In this document: piece by piece, positions 3,493-35,913 of the stretch
How positions within the stretch are numbered: the first letter of the stretch is position 1
How the letters are laid out: the number at the start of each line of letters is the position of its first letter
Virus genome (UHGV): UHGV-0210683
Length of the DNA: 40,225 nucleotides
Strand: one strand, 5' to 3'
Source: a virus
Position numbers and translations under genes: made by a program
The notes under the pieces: model-generated
What the model was told of the DNA's origin: nothing
Databases searched by the model: none
Seen by the model: the letters and a program-made list of their open reading frames with translations, nothing else

Positions 3493-4512
3493 ATGGGTTT
3501 TATGTCTAAACTGCGTCAGTTTTTTTTACCTAATAATAAATCCGGAGTCGCGGATAAGTGCTTAGATAAGAAGGATGATAAACGAAAACGTAATGCGAAT
3601 ATTCAAAAAAAATGGTTAACACTAAATACCCCCCCTTTTTTTGGCAAAGCGTGTATGTCACCCAACAAACGCTGGGTTGTTGGATGCAGTGATGATGATG
3701 GTCACGGTACTGGTGGCTGTAGGGATAAGGGCTGCGGTCGGGTGTTATTCTTAGATTATGAGAATGATAACGTTGTCTTCGAGTTGACAAATATTGCTCG
3801 CCCAGTCTCAGCTGCAGTAGCTGACACTGGGCGATTTCTGGTGTTGGATTGTTGCTTTGGAACAGATCTTCAAAGTGAATTGATTACTATTGATCCAGAT
3901 AAAACAGAAGTATACAGACGTTACTTAAAGGCGAATATTTTCAGCATGGGGATTTCAAAATGTGGTAGATATGCAATTTTACAAACATGCAACGCACCAA
4001 ATGAAGATGGAAATATTTTATCTCTGATGGATTTGCAAAGTCAGTCTGTTCTATTTTCTGTGACTCCGTCTACGAGTTGGGCAGATCGTTATAAATTTAA
4101 GGTGGGTACTGATGGTCTGTTAGTTTCCGTTCTGTGTGAGGAAAAAAATGTAGGTTGGTTTAGCTACGCAGCAGATGGAACATTTAATGATAGCTCGGCT
4201 TATCTAAAGGCTCGTTTGGAAAAAGGCGATTACAGCGTAAAAATTCTGGCAGCTAAGGAATTATTGGATTTAAGTGCCGAAAAACAAGATGCCAAGATAG
4301 CATTAGAAGTTGTAGATACCGCACTTTTAGATGGAGCCAATATGCGATCCGACTGGAGTGCTAGTGCGCATAAGATACGTGGAGAAGCATTTGAAATACT
4401 GGATGAACCATGCAAAGCATTAGAGGCATATGAGACCGCTTTAGGGCTAAACCCTAAAATTGGTGTGAAAAGGAAGATTGCCGCTATAAAAAAATCATTA
4501 ACAATAAATTAG
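3493..4512 (+). CDS. AT-rich moron protein with beta-rich repeats and a C-terminal TPR
   Basis: 339-aa ORF in a visibly AT-rich island (~3336-4660). The C-terminal AHKIRGEAFEILDEPCKALEAYETALGLNPKIG is TPR-like. Confidence 0.7.
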   Translation: MGFMSKLRQFFLPNNKSGVADKCLDKKDDKRKRNANIQKKWLTLNTPPFFGKACMSPNKRWVVGCSDDDGHGTGGCRDKGCGRVLFLDYENDNVVFELTNIARPVSAAVADTGRFLVLDCCFGTDLQSELITIDPDKTEVYRRYLKANIFSMGISKCGRYAILQTCNAPNEDGNILSLMDLQSQSVLFSVTPSTSWADRYKFKVGTDGLLVSVLCEEKNVGWFSYAADGTFNDSSAYLKARLEKGDYSVKILAAKELLDLSAEKQDAKIALEVVDTALLDGANMRSDWSASAHKIRGEAFEILDEPCKALEAYETALGLNPKIGVKRKIAAIKKSLTIN

Positions 4513-4656
4513 ACCTATAATCTTAATGCCTGCAATATAATTAATGGTTTCATCACGTAGTAGTGATTTACATTATTTTGTTCTTAAGTATTGTGTTGAT
4601 TTATTAGAGATAGAATGCCGTAATACTAATTAGCAATTTACATTACATCAGTGTAT

Positions 4657-4730
4657 TATTCAGGTGCTGGCCTGAACAACCAGCATCCTGAATACCCGCT
4701 GTGCCACCGGAGATATTTACATGGCACAGC
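4657..4730 (+). promoter_or_regulatory. Structured 5' leader of the DUF1367-Ref-Q operon (two hairpins, the second occluding the start codon)
   Basis: ATTCAGG-TGCTGG...CCAGCA-T-CCTGAAT hairpin (4657-4693). GCTGTGCCA (4698-4706) pairs with TGGCACAGC (4722-4730), enclosing GGAG and covering the ATG at 4721. Confidence 0.6.
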
Positions 4731-5314
4731 ATAGCTTTATCAAACTCCCCAACGATACTCTTGCGCCTGCAAATCCGGCAGCAAGGGATTATCTGCATTC
4801 AAAAGTTAAGTGCGGTGATGTGCTGTCAGCAGACTTCAAAAAGGCACGTAACCCACGATTTCACCGCAAATATTTCGCACTCCTGAACCTCGGTTATGAA
4901 TATTGGGAACCGGTCGGCGGCACCATTTCGCCGGAAGAAAAAGAACTGGTTCGCGGGTATGTGAAATTCCTCGCTTATTACACGGACAATGACGATGCAC
5001 TGCAGTCAGCAGCTGACGCCTATCTTGATGATGTAGCACAAAAGCGCGCGCAGAATATTACTGCGACAAAATCTTTTGACGCTTTCCGATCCTGGGCCAT
5101 TGAACAATCCGGCCAGTACGACACCTACGAAATGCCTGACGGCAGCCTGCGCCGTGTCGCTAAATCAATCAGCTTTGCCAAAATGGATGACCTGCAATTT
5201 GGCGAACTCTATAAATCCACGCTTGATGTGCTGTGGAACTTCATTCTGTACCGCAATTTTTCCACGCAACAGGCCGCTGAGAACGCGGCAGCACAGTTAT
5301 TAGATTTTACCTGA
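4721..5314 (+). CDS. DUF1367-family phage protein
   Basis: RNPRFHRKYFALLNLGYEYWEP and KSISFAKMDD.QF..LY motifs; typical position upstream of Q. Confidence 0.8.
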   Translation: MAQHSFIKLPNDTLAPANPAARDYLHSKVKCGDVLSADFKKARNPRFHRKYFALLNLGYEYWEPVGGTISPEEKELVRGYVKFLAYYTDNDDALQSAADAYLDDVAQKRAQNITATKSFDAFRSWAIEQSGQYDTYEMPDGSLRRVAKSISFAKMDDLQFGELYKSTLDVLWNFILYRNFSTQQAAENAAAQLLDFT

Positions 5315-5326
5315 GAGGCAAGACCA

Positions 5327-5638
5327 ATGACCAAATCAAAGACCAAAGCAGAACAGCAATGGCTGTCGGATGTGGCCGAACTCGGCTGTATCTGCTGCCG
5401 TAACATGGGGTACGGGGCATCCCGTGCAGAACTGCATCATGTGAGAAACGGGCAGGGTATGGGACAAAGGGCGGATCATTATTCCGTACTCCCTTTATGT
5501 CCGCAGCACCACTGGGCATGTTACGAAACGGGATTCCATGCAGCCCCTGCAACATGGCAGCAGATCCACGGCAGCGAACGTGAATTACTGGAGCAGGTAA
5601 TACAGGAAGTCAGGGAGCTGCGAGCATGCCGAGTATGA
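5327..5638 (+). CDS. Ref-like (recombination enhancement) HNH/Zn-finger nuclease
   Basis: GCICC...AELHH...G.G.RA....VLPLCPQHH pattern. Confidence 0.75.
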   Translation: MTKSKTKAEQQWLSDVAELGCICCRNMGYGASRAELHHVRNGQGMGQRADHYSVLPLCPQHHWACYETGFHAAPATWQQIHGSERELLEQVIQEVRELRACRV

Positions 5639-6162
5639 AAAATATTTCTGATGGGCTGAGGCTCGATAAAGAACGTGAAGAGTGGTTACAAAACTGGTTA
5701 TCTTTGTTTGGTGCCTGGGTTTATAGCGGAAGATTAGAAAAGCGGCAGAGCAGTATGATAGCCCAATTTATGGCTACCGTAGAGCGCAGAGATTACCCCG
5801 ATCGCCCTGTTTGTAATGATGATGACGGTCTGCTAATTAATGAGGTGGTAAAGCTGATTTACCATATTGATACGGAAGCCTTTGATATGCTGCTCAGTCG
5901 ATATGTTTATTGCGCATCAGACAGAGCAATAGCCCGTGCACGGCATGGAAAATACAGGCTAAAAGCCATCATTGCACAAAAAAACGGGCTGCCAGCAAAG
6001 AAAGTACCATCATTATCCACATGCCGCCGGGAGGTGGACGAAATACTAAAAGCAGCTGAGTATTTATTATACCAACCGCTGGTAGATGCGTTTAAAAGGA
6101 AAGAAAAAGAAAAGATCCTGAGGCGAAATAGCAAAAACATGTTGACTTCTTTGAACCAGTGA
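5626..6162 (+). CDS. Late-gene antitermination protein Q
   Basis: WL..FGAW, CNDDDGLLI motif, C-terminal HTH; directly followed by a pR'-like promoter and terminators. Confidence 0.85.
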   Translation: MPSMKNISDGLRLDKEREEWLQNWLSLFGAWVYSGRLEKRQSSMIAQFMATVERRDYPDRPVCNDDDGLLINEVVKLIYHIDTEAFDMLLSRYVYCASDRAIARARHGKYRLKAIIAQKNGLPAKKVPSLSTCRREVDEILKAAEYLLYQPLVDAFKRKEKEKILRRNSKNMLTSLNQ

Positions 6163-8594: not shown

Positions 8595-8612
8595 ATTACC
8601 AGAGGAAAAACT

Positions 8613-8798
8613 ATGTTTAAACATGAATTAGGTCAGGTTGTGCAGGTCACCATCAGCGGCGAAGAAGGTCATGTAAAAGCCCGTGCTGAATATCATAACG
8701 GCCCGAATCAGTATCTCATTCATTATCTGGCAGCGGATGGCCGTGGAACTGACGGCTGGTTTGAAGAAGGCGAGCTGTCCCCGGCAGAACCACAATAA
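8613..8798 (+). CDS. Small hypothetical protein (SH3-like beta pattern)
   Basis: GAGG RBS, 61 aa, lies between two terminators. Confidence 0.7.
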   Translation: MFKHELGQVVQVTISGEEGHVKARAEYHNGPNQYLIHYLAADGRGTDGWFEEGELSPAEPQ

Positions 8799-32434: not shown

Positions 32435-34428
32435 TGGTCTGCCTCTTGTTTTTCAGTCAGTGCGGTTAAACATTCATCTTCAATAGCTTTCAGGCGGCGC
32501 AGGCGGCCTTCGAGGTATTTCTGATATTCTTTATCGCCACGGGATTTTGCATTATTAACATGTACGGAAATCTCCCGTGACAAGGTGGATGCAATACCAC
32601 GCAGCTCATTGGTCGTGACTGCCGTCCGCATGGTTTCCGTGTTGCGTTTGAATTTATCGTCCAGTTCCTCGCGGAGACGGACGATATCATCGGCGTTATC
32701 GCTGGCCGCCTTAATTTCAAACTCCATTTTATTTTTGATGAGATATTCAGGGTTATCGTGCATACCCATGAACACATCAGAAGAGAACCCGAGCATTGAC
32801 AGTGCTTTTTTAATCGCGTCTGTCAGTGATTTTTTTATGACCTCACTATCAACTTTTATGCCGTATTGGGTCTGATAGCGGTATGGTGTCGCGCCGTAGC
32901 TTTCAAAATAACAGCACTTGCCATCTTTACTGCGGTACCAAAACTGGATTTTTATTGAATGATTTTGCTCGCAGAACAGAGAACCGTCTGCGTCACGCAG
33001 GTAACGCAGAGCAACCTGTTTGTTGTTTTCCAGAACAGGTTCAGTCAGCGGTTTGCCGTCTAGGAATTTTTCTTCAACCACCTCATAGCCCCAACCTTCA
33101 CCGATCGGTCCGAAAATTTCGGTAGCACGCATAAACATGTAGTTACTGTTAATGCTGGTACCCTGAAATCCCGCGCCCTCTAAAGGCTTGGTAAAGCGTG
33201 GATCTGTGCGCTGTACCTGCTTCCAGATACTCAGATTGTCCGTGTCTGCCAGAACCTCGGCAATCACTTCGGCGCGGCTGCGGAAGTCATCAGTAGCTGG
33301 TTCCTCGGCATGAGCCGGTTCCGGTGTTTGGGCTATGGTAGTCGGTTCATCGTTGGCCGCTACTTCCGGAGCTGGTTTCTCTGCCGGTTTATCTGCTTTT
33401 TTAGTACGTGTGCGCTTGGTCTTTTCCTGCTTTGCTGCTACGGGTGGTTTATCTTCCGTAATATCCGGACCGGACCGGCCTGTTTCCTGGTCATGACTGC
33501 TTTCTGCCGGCGTTATGCCGATACGGTCAGCCACAAACTGTTTACGGGCTGCCGCATCGCTTATCAGGTCAGGTAATTCTTTTCCTTCACGTACGACAGC
33601 AAAGACTGTTTCACGCGGGATCTGCAATGCGGTCGGGATAATACGGAACTCAGTAGACCAGCGCCGCCAGCTTTCATCTTCATCACTGATCAGCTTTTTT
33701 GCAGCGGTAAGTTTGCTTGGCTGAATTTCCCATGGGTCAAAATTACCGGGAAGAAGGGCGAGGGCTATTTCCTGATCCAGTGTCGCGTAATTATGTTCAA
33801 AATTACGTTGCTTTTGCTCCGGGACAGGGAGTTGCCCGGTGGCCGGTTCTGCAGGGAACAGGTATTCTTCTGCCAGCTTCTGTGCTTCTGCTTCGGTAAT
33901 ACCATCCTGAGCTTTTTCCAGAACAGTATTTACCAGCGCTTCTAAATCCTGTTCATTCAGCAGGGAAACCGTGCGTGTGGCCGCGATACCTTTTGCAATA
34001 TTCCGGATCTGCGGGTATTCATCACTTTCGTGAACAAAATCGACCGCTTTGCGGTACTCATTGCGGGTAAATTGTGTTTTTTCATACAGCATGATTGCCG
34101 CAATACGAACGACTGGCGCCGTTTTTGCAAACACTACCATTTCTTCTTCACGTTTCTGCCAGTCGGTACCGTTGAACTCGTACTCTTTGGCAAAATGTTC
34201 ATCAAAACTATCGCCGGCCGGTGCTGGTTTGCCTGCCTGAGCTTCGCAGATTATTGGTGCCGACACATCAAACTTTCCTGTATTTTCAGGATAAGTTTCC
34301 TCCAGCATCACGGTGGCCATTGCTCTGGCCATCTTCTCGGAATTGGCGGAAATCGTGATTGCAACAGTCACAGCACCGTCTTTAAGTGCCGCATCTATGG
34401 GATTAAATGCACAGATATAATTGGTCAT
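32431..34428 (-). CDS. Large recombination protein: RecE-N-terminal-like region plus C-terminal Rad52/Sak-like annealing domain
   Basis: C-terminal TDPRFTK, ATEIFGPIGEGWGY, KKSLTDAIKKALSMLGFSSDVFMG; central TLDQEIALALLPG. Confidence 0.7.
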   Translation of the reverse strand: MTNYICAFNPIDAALKDGAVTVAITISANSEKMARAMATVMLEETYPENTGKFDVSAPIICEAQAGKPAPAGDSFDEHFAKEYEFNGTDWQKREEEMVVFAKTAPVVRIAAIMLYEKTQFTRNEYRKAVDFVHESDEYPQIRNIAKGIAATRTVSLLNEQDLEALVNTVLEKAQDGITEAEAQKLAEEYLFPAEPATGQLPVPEQKQRNFEHNYATLDQEIALALLPGNFDPWEIQPSKLTAAKKLISDEDESWRRWSTEFRIIPTALQIPRETVFAVVREGKELPDLISDAAARKQFVADRIGITPAESSHDQETGRSGPDITEDKPPVAAKQEKTKRTRTKKADKPAEKPAPEVAANDEPTTIAQTPEPAHAEEPATDDFRSRAEVIAEVLADTDNLSIWKQVQRTDPRFTKPLEGAGFQGTSINSNYMFMRATEIFGPIGEGWGYEVVEEKFLDGKPLTEPVLENNKQVALRYLRDADGSLFCEQNHSIKIQFWYRSKDGKCCYFESYGATPYRYQTQYGIKVDSEVIKKSLTDAIKKALSMLGFSSDVFMGMHDNPEYLIKNKMEFEIKAASDNADDIVRLREELDDKFKRNTETMRTAVTTNELRGIASTLSREISVHVNNAKSRGDKEYQKYLEGRLRRLKAIEDECLTALTEKQEADQ

Positions 34429-34443: not shown

Positions 34444-34815
34444 TCAGTAAGGTAATGCTTCGTCGTCTTTGGAGATAACTTCACCCTCCAGGCATAGCAG
34501 TGCCTGTATCTGGTCTTCCAGTAATCTGGTTTTGGCAGTTGCATCTGCAAGGATCTGATTTTGCTCTGCCCGTAAACTGTTAATTTCGGCCTGAACTAAA
34601 TCAGATTTACTGACTGAAGGGTCGGGTAATTCAAACTGGTGTTCGGCAACGGGGAAGCCCATACCGTCAGTCGCTTTGAATTTGTGGGTGAATACTGAAT
34701 ACGCGATACTTCCGTCAAACCGTTTTTGTGCATGGACGTAAAGCGTGACTTTGAGGAGGTTAGGTTGTGCTTTCATAGCAACTCCTTTAAAATGATGTTT
34801 CCAATGATTCGTCAT
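34444..34815 (-). CDS. Hypothetical protein, first pL gene (two in-frame starts: 34815 and 34776)
   Basis: ATG 34815 is preceded by GAGGCAAGACCA and ATG 34776 by AAGGAG; C-terminal coiled coil. Confidence 0.7.
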   Translation of the reverse strand: MTNHWKHHFKGVAMKAQPNLLKVTLYVHAQKRFDGSIAYSVFTHKFKATDGMGFPVAEHQFELPDPSVSKSDLVQAEINSLRAEQNQILADATAKTRLLEDQIQALLCLEGEVISKDDEALPY

Positions 34816-34886
34816 TGGTCTTGCCTCTTCTGACGGTTGGTCCCGTCAGTGGAACTCCGGATTAGCTTTGGTCGGCGACTCCGGGT

Positions 34887-34914
34887 AAAAGAGCCCACTT
34901 CGGTGGGTTTTTTT
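34887..34914. terminator. Bidirectional terminator in the pL leader (tL1-like)
   Basis: AAAAGAGCCCAC-TTCG-GTGGGTTTTTTT. Confidence 0.75.
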
Positions 34915-35054
34915 ACGTCTGAAATAAGGTGCCCGTCTTTCCGGGCTGTCAGGTCGCCTTGCCTCTTCTGCCATCTTCGTGGCGTTATTTGTTTCCTGGT
35001 GCTGCCGTAAAACTGTGAACGTTTATCCTGAATACCCGCTGTGGGGTTTTGATG
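34887..35054 (-). ncRNA. Candidate ~165-nt pL leader sRNA
   Basis: Bounded by pL and the terminator. Contains a 19-nt antisense to 4685-4703 and a boxB-like GCCCG-GAAAGA-CGGGC hairpin (34931-34946). Confidence 0.5.
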
Positions 35055-35060
35055 ACATAA

Positions 35061-35102
35061 ATATTAGCAATGCTATTTTTATTATGCAATAGCAATGCTA
35101 AT
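35061..35102 (-). promoter_or_regulatory. pL promoter with operators OL1/OL2
   Basis: TTGCAT-17 bp-TAATAT on the minus strand; palindromes ATTAGCAATGCTATT (35063-35077) and AATAGCAATGCTAAT (35088-35102). Confidence 0.8.
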
Positions 35103-35160: not shown

Positions 35161-35913
35161 TTATGCAAAGTCAATCATTCTAATGGGGAGGGATTTTATA
35201 ACTTTTCCGATTATGCGCAGATCATGGGTTTCATTTTCTTCAATGTAAAACGTTTCGTAAGCTTCATTATCAGATTTCACTGCGAGCCTGCGACCTTTTA
35301 CGCGCTGTAATCTTTTAATAAATAATGAATTTTCAAAGGTAAAAACATAAATACCATCACTGTCAAAAAAAGAGTTATGGGTGTCAACAAATACAACATC
35401 TTTTGGGTTGATAGCTGGCGACATGCTATCCCCACTGATGTTGATCATCTCTATACCTTTCAAGTTTCTTCTCCCAAAGAGTTCAAAAACTTTTTCTGGT
35501 GAAAACTCTATTGATTTTATCGTGTCAGGGAAATCAGCATTAATAAAGCCGCCGGGACCAGCTTTAGCATATACATCCATAAGCCTTAATGTATTGATCT
35601 CATTGCTTGTGATGGCATTTGTCTGATGGGCTGAATTAGTGTCGGATGTAGTTCTTATGTGTTCAAGCAAAGGACCTATTTCCGGATTTATTTCCTCAGG
35701 TTGAACCTGAAGCAAAGCAGAAAATTTCAATACGGTATCCGTGTTTAGTGCTGTTCTTGCATTTAAATACTGGCTGACCGCCGCTTGTGTATTAAACCCA
35801 AGAGCATCCGCAGCTTTTTCCTGAGTTAAGCCGAGGGATTCACGCTTTGCTTCCCAGATTGCTCGCAATCTTTGCGCTGCGCTTTTGTCTGTATCGGATA
35901 TTTTTCTGTTCAT
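35161..35913 (-). CDS. cI: CI-like repressor (HTH plus S24 autopeptidase)
   Basis: LTQEKAADALGFNTQAAVSQYLN HTH, AG cleavage site, GDSM.P serine and IKRL lysine. Confidence 0.93.
   Translation of the reverse strand: MNRKISDTDKSAAQRLRAIWEAKRESLGLTQEKAADALGFNTQAAVSQYLNARTALNTDTVLKFSALLQVQPEEINPEIGPLLEHIRTTSDTNSAHQTNAITSNEINTLRLMDVYAKAGPGGFINADFPDTIKSIEFSPEKVFELFGRRNLKGIEMINISGDSMSPAINPKDVVFVDTHNSFFDSDGIYVFTFENSLFIKRLQRVKGRRLAVKSDNEAYETFYIEENETHDLRIIGKVIKSLPIRMIDFA

Follow-up and report, generated by a model that had tools for sequence, protein, structure and literature searches.

A repeat shared by the pL and Q-operon leaders of a lambdoid prophage as a candidate natural toehold-type switch

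The prophage described here carries a 19-nt sequence, ATCCTGAATACCCGCTGTG, whose two copies we interpret, with a probability of about two in three, as the halves of a natural toehold-type switch: the pL transcript's leader would open a hairpin predicted to lie over the first start codon of the Q operon. The window, the whole 40,225-nt stretch of viral DNA analyzed (UHGV-0210683), is a circularly permuted lambdoid prophage. Exact copies of ATCCTGAATACCCGCTGTG lie at 4685–4703 and 35025–35043, both on the plus strand. The first is inside the leader of the DUF1367, Ref-like and Q genes on the plus-strand transcript, and the second is 118 nt beyond the 3′ end of cI on the leftward, minus-strand transcript, so the two RNAs are complementary. 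A search of the window with up to three mismatches allowed found no third match, none of 100 shuffles contained two matches, and the 19-mer is the second-longest exact direct repeat of the window. Upstream of each copy are TGAAC (4673–4677 and 35016–35020) and GGTGCTG (4663 and 34998). The exact repeat, the weaker upstream matches and the complementarity of the RNAs from the two sites, all described in a first-pass annotation of this DNA, were recovered.

The gene order of the window is cI on the minus strand (35161–35913, a CI-type repressor with HTH and S24 domains), cro, a cII-like gene, replication and methyltransferase genes and an AT-rich insert, after which come the DUF1367 gene, the Ref-like gene, Q, and the lysis and morphogenesis genes. 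The DUF1367 or irsA-type gene is the first of the Q operon (4721–5314, plus strand; Pfam PF07105, E = 1e-86; a homologue is labelled irsA), and its nearest named relative is in a Morganella genome (96% identity). The Ref-like gene of the DUF968 family (5327–5638, plus) bears a AGAGGCAAGACCAATG tag at its start, and its end is overlapped by the start of the late antiterminator gene Q (5626–6162, plus; PF06530, phrog_943). An Rfam scan of the window returned nothing at the gathering threshold. An AT-rich gene for 339 amino acids (3493–4512) occupies a variable slot preceding the Q-operon promoter; the matches of its product are only weak C-terminal ones to terminase small-subunit profiles. A 709-aa protein encoded at 474–2603 fuses a cytosine methylase with a Dam-type adenine methylase domain, and the palindrome GTGACATGTCAC is found three times in the window (12989, 31886 and 36696) and also in ZF40 (locus L113, ~5135).

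We propose a plausible mechanism by which the two leaders could act together. In the lysogen, Q-operon mRNA would be made from its own promoter and held untranslated, and Q would be kept silent through translational coupling and probably through Rho polarity. Upon inactivation of CI, the pL RNA would dock at the toehold, possibly aided by a GUUC–GAAC loop contact, and would displace ~6 bp of the start-codon stem. Opening of this stem would permit expression of the first gene, then Q, and then the late genes. The pL leader would thus be an RNA key, with Q and hence lysis turned on only after prophage induction; the trigger and target are 3–10 kb apart. Because no intrinsic terminator is listed on the plus strand between 4721 and 6162 and Q overlaps the Ref-like gene, Q is likely reached through coupling or Rho polarity. 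The C/G ratio early in the first gene is 1.06–1.21, a slight excess with no prominent C-rich Rho signature.

Loci were gathered around five DUF1367 homologues (the best 80 matches of each) and supplemented with named phages. The gene was on the plus strand in 388 loci, and removal of 82 with less than 8 kb upstream and four with no clear start left 302. A 22-nt flank outside the seed located a pL site in 270 of the 302 loci, yielding 141 unique pairs; these sites are not fully independent because the flank library was seeded from top hits. A second look at the remaining 32 loci found a cognate site in six, a mismatched site in one, and none in the DNA examined in 25.

On the target side, a putative sigma-70 promoter for the Q operon (TTAGCA-18-TATTAT, 4630–4659, plus strand, −10 hexamer at 4654–4659) would place the start near 4665. 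A −10-like hexamer is present 15–24 nt before the hairpin-1 loop in 201 of 202 distinct leaders, compared with 55 of 202 in a control window, and this position persists although the upstream DNA varies. Retention of the −10 box makes it likely that the Q operon is served by a promoter of its own, with transcription starting at hairpin 1. For Gifsy-1, a start site has been reported 1,600 nt upstream of antQ (PMC4825925, available text). Since the LT2 record places the start of irsA 1,556 nt before Q, we infer that this site is the promoter of the same Q-operon leader.

Hairpin 1 of the predicted fold (4665–4685, plus; TGCTGG/CCAGCA) displays the loop CCTGAACAA (CCUGAACAA), a candidate second contact for the trigger, and is predicted in 146 of 160 distinct leaders, with many different stems, many of them compensated, and a TG(A/G)(A/G)C loop. 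It is followed by a predicted single-stranded toehold of 12 nt (4686–4697, plus), which forms the leading portion of the 19-mer (over the 141 pairs, the median toehold length is 11 nt), and by hairpin 2 (4698–4730, plus), whose arms are 4698–4706 and 4722–4730 and whose loop holds GGAG (4709–4712). The 3′ arm covers the UG of AUG and six bases of codons 2–3, and the trigger reaches 4698–4703 of the 5′ arm. The predicted fold therefore agrees with the earlier proposal that a stem formed by 4698–4706 sequesters the DUF1367 start codon, with a stability (z = −3.1) equalled by two of 200 shuffles. The 19-mer had also been said to overlap arms of both leader hairpins. This is so for the 5′ arm of hairpin 2; with a start near 4665, the 3′ arm of hairpin 1 shares only one base with the 19-mer, which is otherwise mostly free toehold up to hairpin 2. 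The start codon region is predicted to be hidden in all 160 distinct leaders, with five or more of the nine initial coding bases paired upstream. Compensated pairs occur in the start-codon hairpin at position +4 (CG 104, UG 51, UA 5) and position +6 (CG 75, UA 68, UG 13). If transcription came from further upstream, hairpin 1 would extend by pairing of 4657–4664 with 4686–4694 (TATTCAGG/CCTGAATA) and hide the toehold; such an extended hairpin is seen in some Morganella leaders only. In three loci the Q-operon leader is present twice, the extra copy lying ~1.4 kb upstream of the principal one (L038, ~8610–8670; L056, 8647–8675; L081, 8596–8665).

On the trigger side, the putative pL (35053–35100, minus strand) consists of TTGCAT (35089–35084) and TAATAT (35066–35061) with a start at ~35053. 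It is absent from a consensus promoter scan of the window, and we infer it from its position, from clearer homologues and from the operator-like palindromes TAGCAATGCTA (35065–35075 and 35090–35100), which are likely CI operators. The pL region is an inverted match to the cI–cro interval. The trigger seed (35025–35043, minus) would span ~+11 to +29 of the pL transcript, and the trigger anchor GUUCA (35016–35020, minus) complements UGAAC in the hairpin-1 loop. The seed is at ~+10 in the pL leaders of Gifsy-2, Qin and the window, and 80–130 nt into the leader where it is preceded by another conserved element; the putative pL start of Gifsy-2 is followed after ~70 nt by the start of an annotated ORF. 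A conserved element upstream of the trigger, AAGTAGC...TAYGAA, was found in 50 of 232 pL regions and is absent from the window. This element (L113 6060–6160, L118 3380–3450, L013 3090–3150 and L121 5230–5280, all minus) is a candidate cis-acting antiterminator. A candidate second target on the pL operon, an 11-mer at 34011–34021, was rejected as not general, the longest seed matches being 7.5–7.9 compared with 7.3–7.5 after shuffling.

The trigger had been pictured as a discrete sRNA ending ~165 nt after pL. This is unsupported, because the hairpin at 34894–34907 closes an IsrB-like match on the plus strand and fits that RNA better. The hairpin is listed as a terminator on the minus strand too, with a tail of CTCTTTT there and of seven T on the plus strand, and no such hairpin is conserved in position in Gifsy-2 or other pL leaders. 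The trigger is probably the 5′ leader of a long pL mRNA, or a fragment of it, rather than a terminator-defined sRNA. The IsrB-like antisense RNA with its terminator (34828–34913, plus; hairpin 34894–34907, T7 tail) matches Rfam RF01386 at 31.9 bits, under the gathering threshold of 35 (E = 9e-4), and IsrB matches above gathering lie at a like position in L112 (Gifsy-2) and L013. IsrB thus shares the early-left region with the trigger in both the window and Gifsy-2, but it is on the opposite strand, ~110 nt further down, and is a separate RNA. The putative 5′ part of the IsrB-like RNA (34801–34913, plus) mirrors a GAGGCA(A)GACCAATG-type tag found at several early gene starts (5314, 36767 and 39804, plus; 34828, 34441, 32444, 31881 and 31299, minus), one of which is the start of the Ref-like gene just before Q. 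The IsrB-like RNA, to which the pL transcript is antisense, might act as another lock on Q.

Folding of the two regions together, a check named in the first-pass annotation, supported their pairing: the co-fold of the window gains −20.9 kcal/mol, compared with a mean of −4.4 and a best of −12.5 for 200 shuffled triggers, and loses the 9-bp stem, while a weak alternative helix re-pairs GGAG, the Shine–Dalgarno motif. Across the 141 pairs, the core extends a median of 6 bp into the anti-AUG arm, leaving 2, and at least three bases into it in 136; it reaches the Shine–Dalgarno-like motif in none. By prediction, the trigger therefore pairs with the inhibitory strand and not with the ribosome site, and it is the inhibitory strand with which it co-varies. 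The cognate trigger raises the predicted accessibility of positions +1 to +9 from 0.19 to 0.46, compared with 0.18 in the presence of a non-cognate trigger, and the predicted rise exceeds 0.3 in 69 of 141 cognate and two of 141 non-cognate combinations; the folding leaves aside the loop contact and ribosome competition. Predicted opening is mostly a feature of Morganellaceae (47/62), with 4/23, 6/20, 9/30 and 3/6 in the other groups.

The same pairing could have the opposite sign, a reading that we consider unlikely: the pL RNA would cover a ribosome standby site and delay Q until Cro shuts off pL, serving as a lysis timer. The duplex stops a median of 15 nt short of the AUG, near enough to interfere with ribosome loading, and occupies the leader's only single-stranded stretch; moreover, predicted opening is small in 72 of the 141 pairs. 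There is reportedly a precedent for standby-site blocking in IstR-1/tisB, and for antisense delay of Q in lambda paQ. Entry into the anti-AUG arm in 136 of 141 pairs without ever covering the Shine–Dalgarno motif would, however, be counter-productive for repression. In addition, a Q operon with its own promoter would be unguarded in the lysogen, where pL is off, yet Gifsy lytic genes are reported to be silent in lysogens (PMC7067206, available text). Activation is favored because a self-promoted Q operon has to be silent whenever pL is. Of the proposal that a pL-derived sRNA switches on the operon leading to Q, the switching-on is consistent with the co-variation and the geometry, whereas the discrete sRNA found no support. 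Expression of the antirepressor raises antQ-operon mRNA in Gifsy-1 (PMC4825925, available text), a rise that would follow if pL RNA relieved polarity.

A duplex that creates a processing or anti-termination signal, through an RNase III cut or blocked Rho loading, rather than displacing the strand directly, is less probable still. It would keep the pairing itself, but the median core of 14 nt is short for RNase III, and conservation centres on the start-codon hairpin.

Pairing as such, between the pL leader and the Q-operon leader and under selection, is well supported, and we regard it as very probable. Co-variation of the two sites in related phages, which the first-pass annotation had named as a check, was borne out: the mean duplex energy of the 141 unique pairs was −32.9 kcal/mol for cognate partners, compared with −19.9 when partners were shuffled over all pairs and −26.3 when they were shuffled within groups, and no shuffle matched the cognate mean (0/5000 in either case), although these significances are overstated because the pairs share ancestry. 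In the ZF40 group alone (six pairs), 51 of 5000 shuffles did so. For 115 of 141 targets, the cognate trigger was among the top 10% of 96. An unbiased duplex scan of both upstream strands returned the pL site as the best partner in 49 loci out of the 58 scanned. Whole-locus scans ranked the pL site first in Gifsy-1, Gifsy-2, SEN34 and ZF40, but not in mEp237, Kp5LV, RothC, L391 and L392; reading of the pL leader found the cognate site in mEp237, Kp5LV and RothC, and likewise in pAEv1818 and pPE4.

The co-variation spans Morganella, Proteus, Providencia, Xenorhabdus, Salmonella Gifsy, Klebsiella and E. coli prophages, and the seeds differ wholesale among classes (ATCCTGAATACCCGCTGTG, AACACTTGCTGTG, GCTGCTGTGCC, ACCTTCTGCGC, AACCTACAGCGCC, CTAATGACCGGCG and others). 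In the Klebsiella group, DUF1367 is ~97–100% identical to the query, yet there are several seed classes. Here the hairpin-1 loop and the trigger anchor change together (GAGC/GAGC 18, mismatched 1 and 0, other/other 11; p = 2e-7); one Klebsiella class, of several pairs, matches only partially. Mismatched pairs were found at three loci (L138, L334 and L223).

Mismatches within the ungapped core, counted as distinct events, were G–U wobble-compatible in 21 cases and of the opposite kind in six (p = 0.006), with 18 transversions, and among mismatched cores (n = 76) sense pairing was better in 65 and worse in seven. BUCT708, outside the sample, has an 18-nt core with three differences, all G–U compatible. 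Over the whole window of each pair, the wobble test was reversed (41 vs 73) and opposite-strand pairing scored better in 111 of 141. We attribute this reversal to the linker between seed and anchor, which skews whole-window tests because the target linker sits inside hairpin 1. Restriction to the ungapped core, a definition chosen after the whole-window mismatch and strand result had been seen, turned both results toward sense pairing. A DNA-level origin of the repeat, as a duplicated protein-binding site or a recombination scar whose match is kept by descent or gene conversion, has on its side that both sites are directly behind promoters, that the whole-window tests did not favor the sense model and that shared ancestry is only partly removed, but it is very improbable, given that the sequence changes completely between groups while complementarity, the core G–U bias, the hairpins and the loop–anchor match persist, and that the pL site is retained beside several unrelated repressor types.

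The switch by RNA pairing that we favor is reminiscent of the IsrK/orf45–anrP/AntQ system of Gifsy-1, in which, according to the available text (PMC4825925), a prophage RNA acting in trans opens a silent leader and Q expression is a downstream output reached by translational coupling. IsrK itself, as described there, is located downstream of Q, has its own read-through transcript as target and works via an antirepressor (PMC4825925), whereas the trigger here comes from pL, 3–10 kb off, and its target is the Q operon's first gene. With the trigger at pL and the target in the Q-operon leader, the location is unlike that of IsrK/C4, downstream of Q; the IsrK/C4 Rfam models gave no match at gathering in the window and none at E ≤ 5 in either region. 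Gifsy-1 carries both IsrK and the pL/Q-leader module. In the lambda N/nut system, N, a pL product, modifies polymerase and licenses Q. The present module is similar in that a pL product made on derepression would license Q and then the late genes; unlike N/nut, the signal would be RNA pairing on a separately promoted operon and not polymerase modification. As the first-pass annotation had noted, no N gene is visible: profile searches found none in the window (a divergent N could be missed), and a set of 69 pL-proximal ORFs from relatives, chosen out of 186 clusters, contained no match to an N family. The idea that the module replaces N holds at most for turning Q on, and not for read-through of early terminators.

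HK022 put is likewise an RNA element of the leader of pL in lambdoid phages that lack N (PMC9378689, available text). It acts in cis on RNA polymerase, according to the same source, whereas here the co-varying partner is on another transcript. A 2025 paper also proposes put for an N-less phage (PMC12315714, available text). Among the 40 listed of 47 matches to the upstream element of ZF40, HK022 was absent. Engineered toehold switches are laid out with a toehold, a ribosome site in a loop and the start codon in a stem. The leaders described here are predicted to share this layout, the unwinding of the lower stem by the trigger and the division into orthogonal sequence classes; they differ from the synthetic switches in being natural, in their stem of 6–9 bp and in an extra 5′ hairpin with a co-varying loop, and their function is predicted. 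We found no account of pL-leader/Q-operon-leader pairing in the open-licence literature (most subscription papers and supplements lie outside it), and it is not described in the available text of a Pas sRNA preprint (10.64898/2026.05.13.724894) or of PMC9879122.

We lean slightly toward a general reading, namely that, beside the N protein and put RNA, there is a third way of linking repressor loss to the late switch, in which a natural toehold switch on the Q operon of the right arm is opened by a left-arm mRNA leader acting as its sequence-specific key. This arrangement would be common in enterobacterial prophages (Gifsy-1/2, Qin, Rac-type, Klebsiella and Morganellaceae) and split into many orthogonal key–lock classes. 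Like immunity groups, such classes would limit cross-activation between co-resident prophages; they would also constrain viable arm recombinants and explain why distant modules stay matched in mosaic genomes. In nature, the module would be the counterpart of the engineered toehold switches. What the conserved irsA region does has been called elusive (PMC3121763, available text), and the reading offers a specific, mutation-level hypothesis for Q activation in N-less lambdoid phages that covers well-studied prophages.

By sequence comparison, the module is not tied to DUF1367. In Qin of E. coli K-12, the predicted partner of the dicBp leader is the leader of an unannotated 92-aa ORF that precedes ydfU and ydfT (Q); among 3041 windows the dicBp leader takes first place, although most of the stem is retained in the Qin co-fold. 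The hypothesis is testable in K-12, because Qin has a matched pair and dicBp is reported to be inducible by Rem (PMC10448788, available text). The annotated ydfU start, tried as a candidate, has no matching leader; the match belongs to the unannotated ORF upstream. This ORF lies between rem and ydfU (L388, 4585, minus; NC_000913.3, 1,644,584) with a full two-hairpin leader, and its homologues are annotated as hypothetical in other prophages. From 80 loci of the 92-aa-ORF family, 30 were too short and two lacked a start, and 43 of the 48 usable loci had a pL site with a matching seed, all of one seed class. The cognate and shuffled energies of this set were −23.45 and −23.44, since a single seed class cannot reveal co-variation. 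A 101-nt pL-leader query matched 3724 of 5426 E. coli genomes, a figure that counts matches to a query including flanking elements, and not pairs. In Pseudomonas D3 and Vibrio VvAW1, the DUF1367 genes abut or overlap the upstream gene, and inspection of their upstream stretches revealed no two-hairpin leader. A phage recorded from Stenotrophomonas (L473, OM816834.1) has an enterobacterial-type layout and carries the full module.
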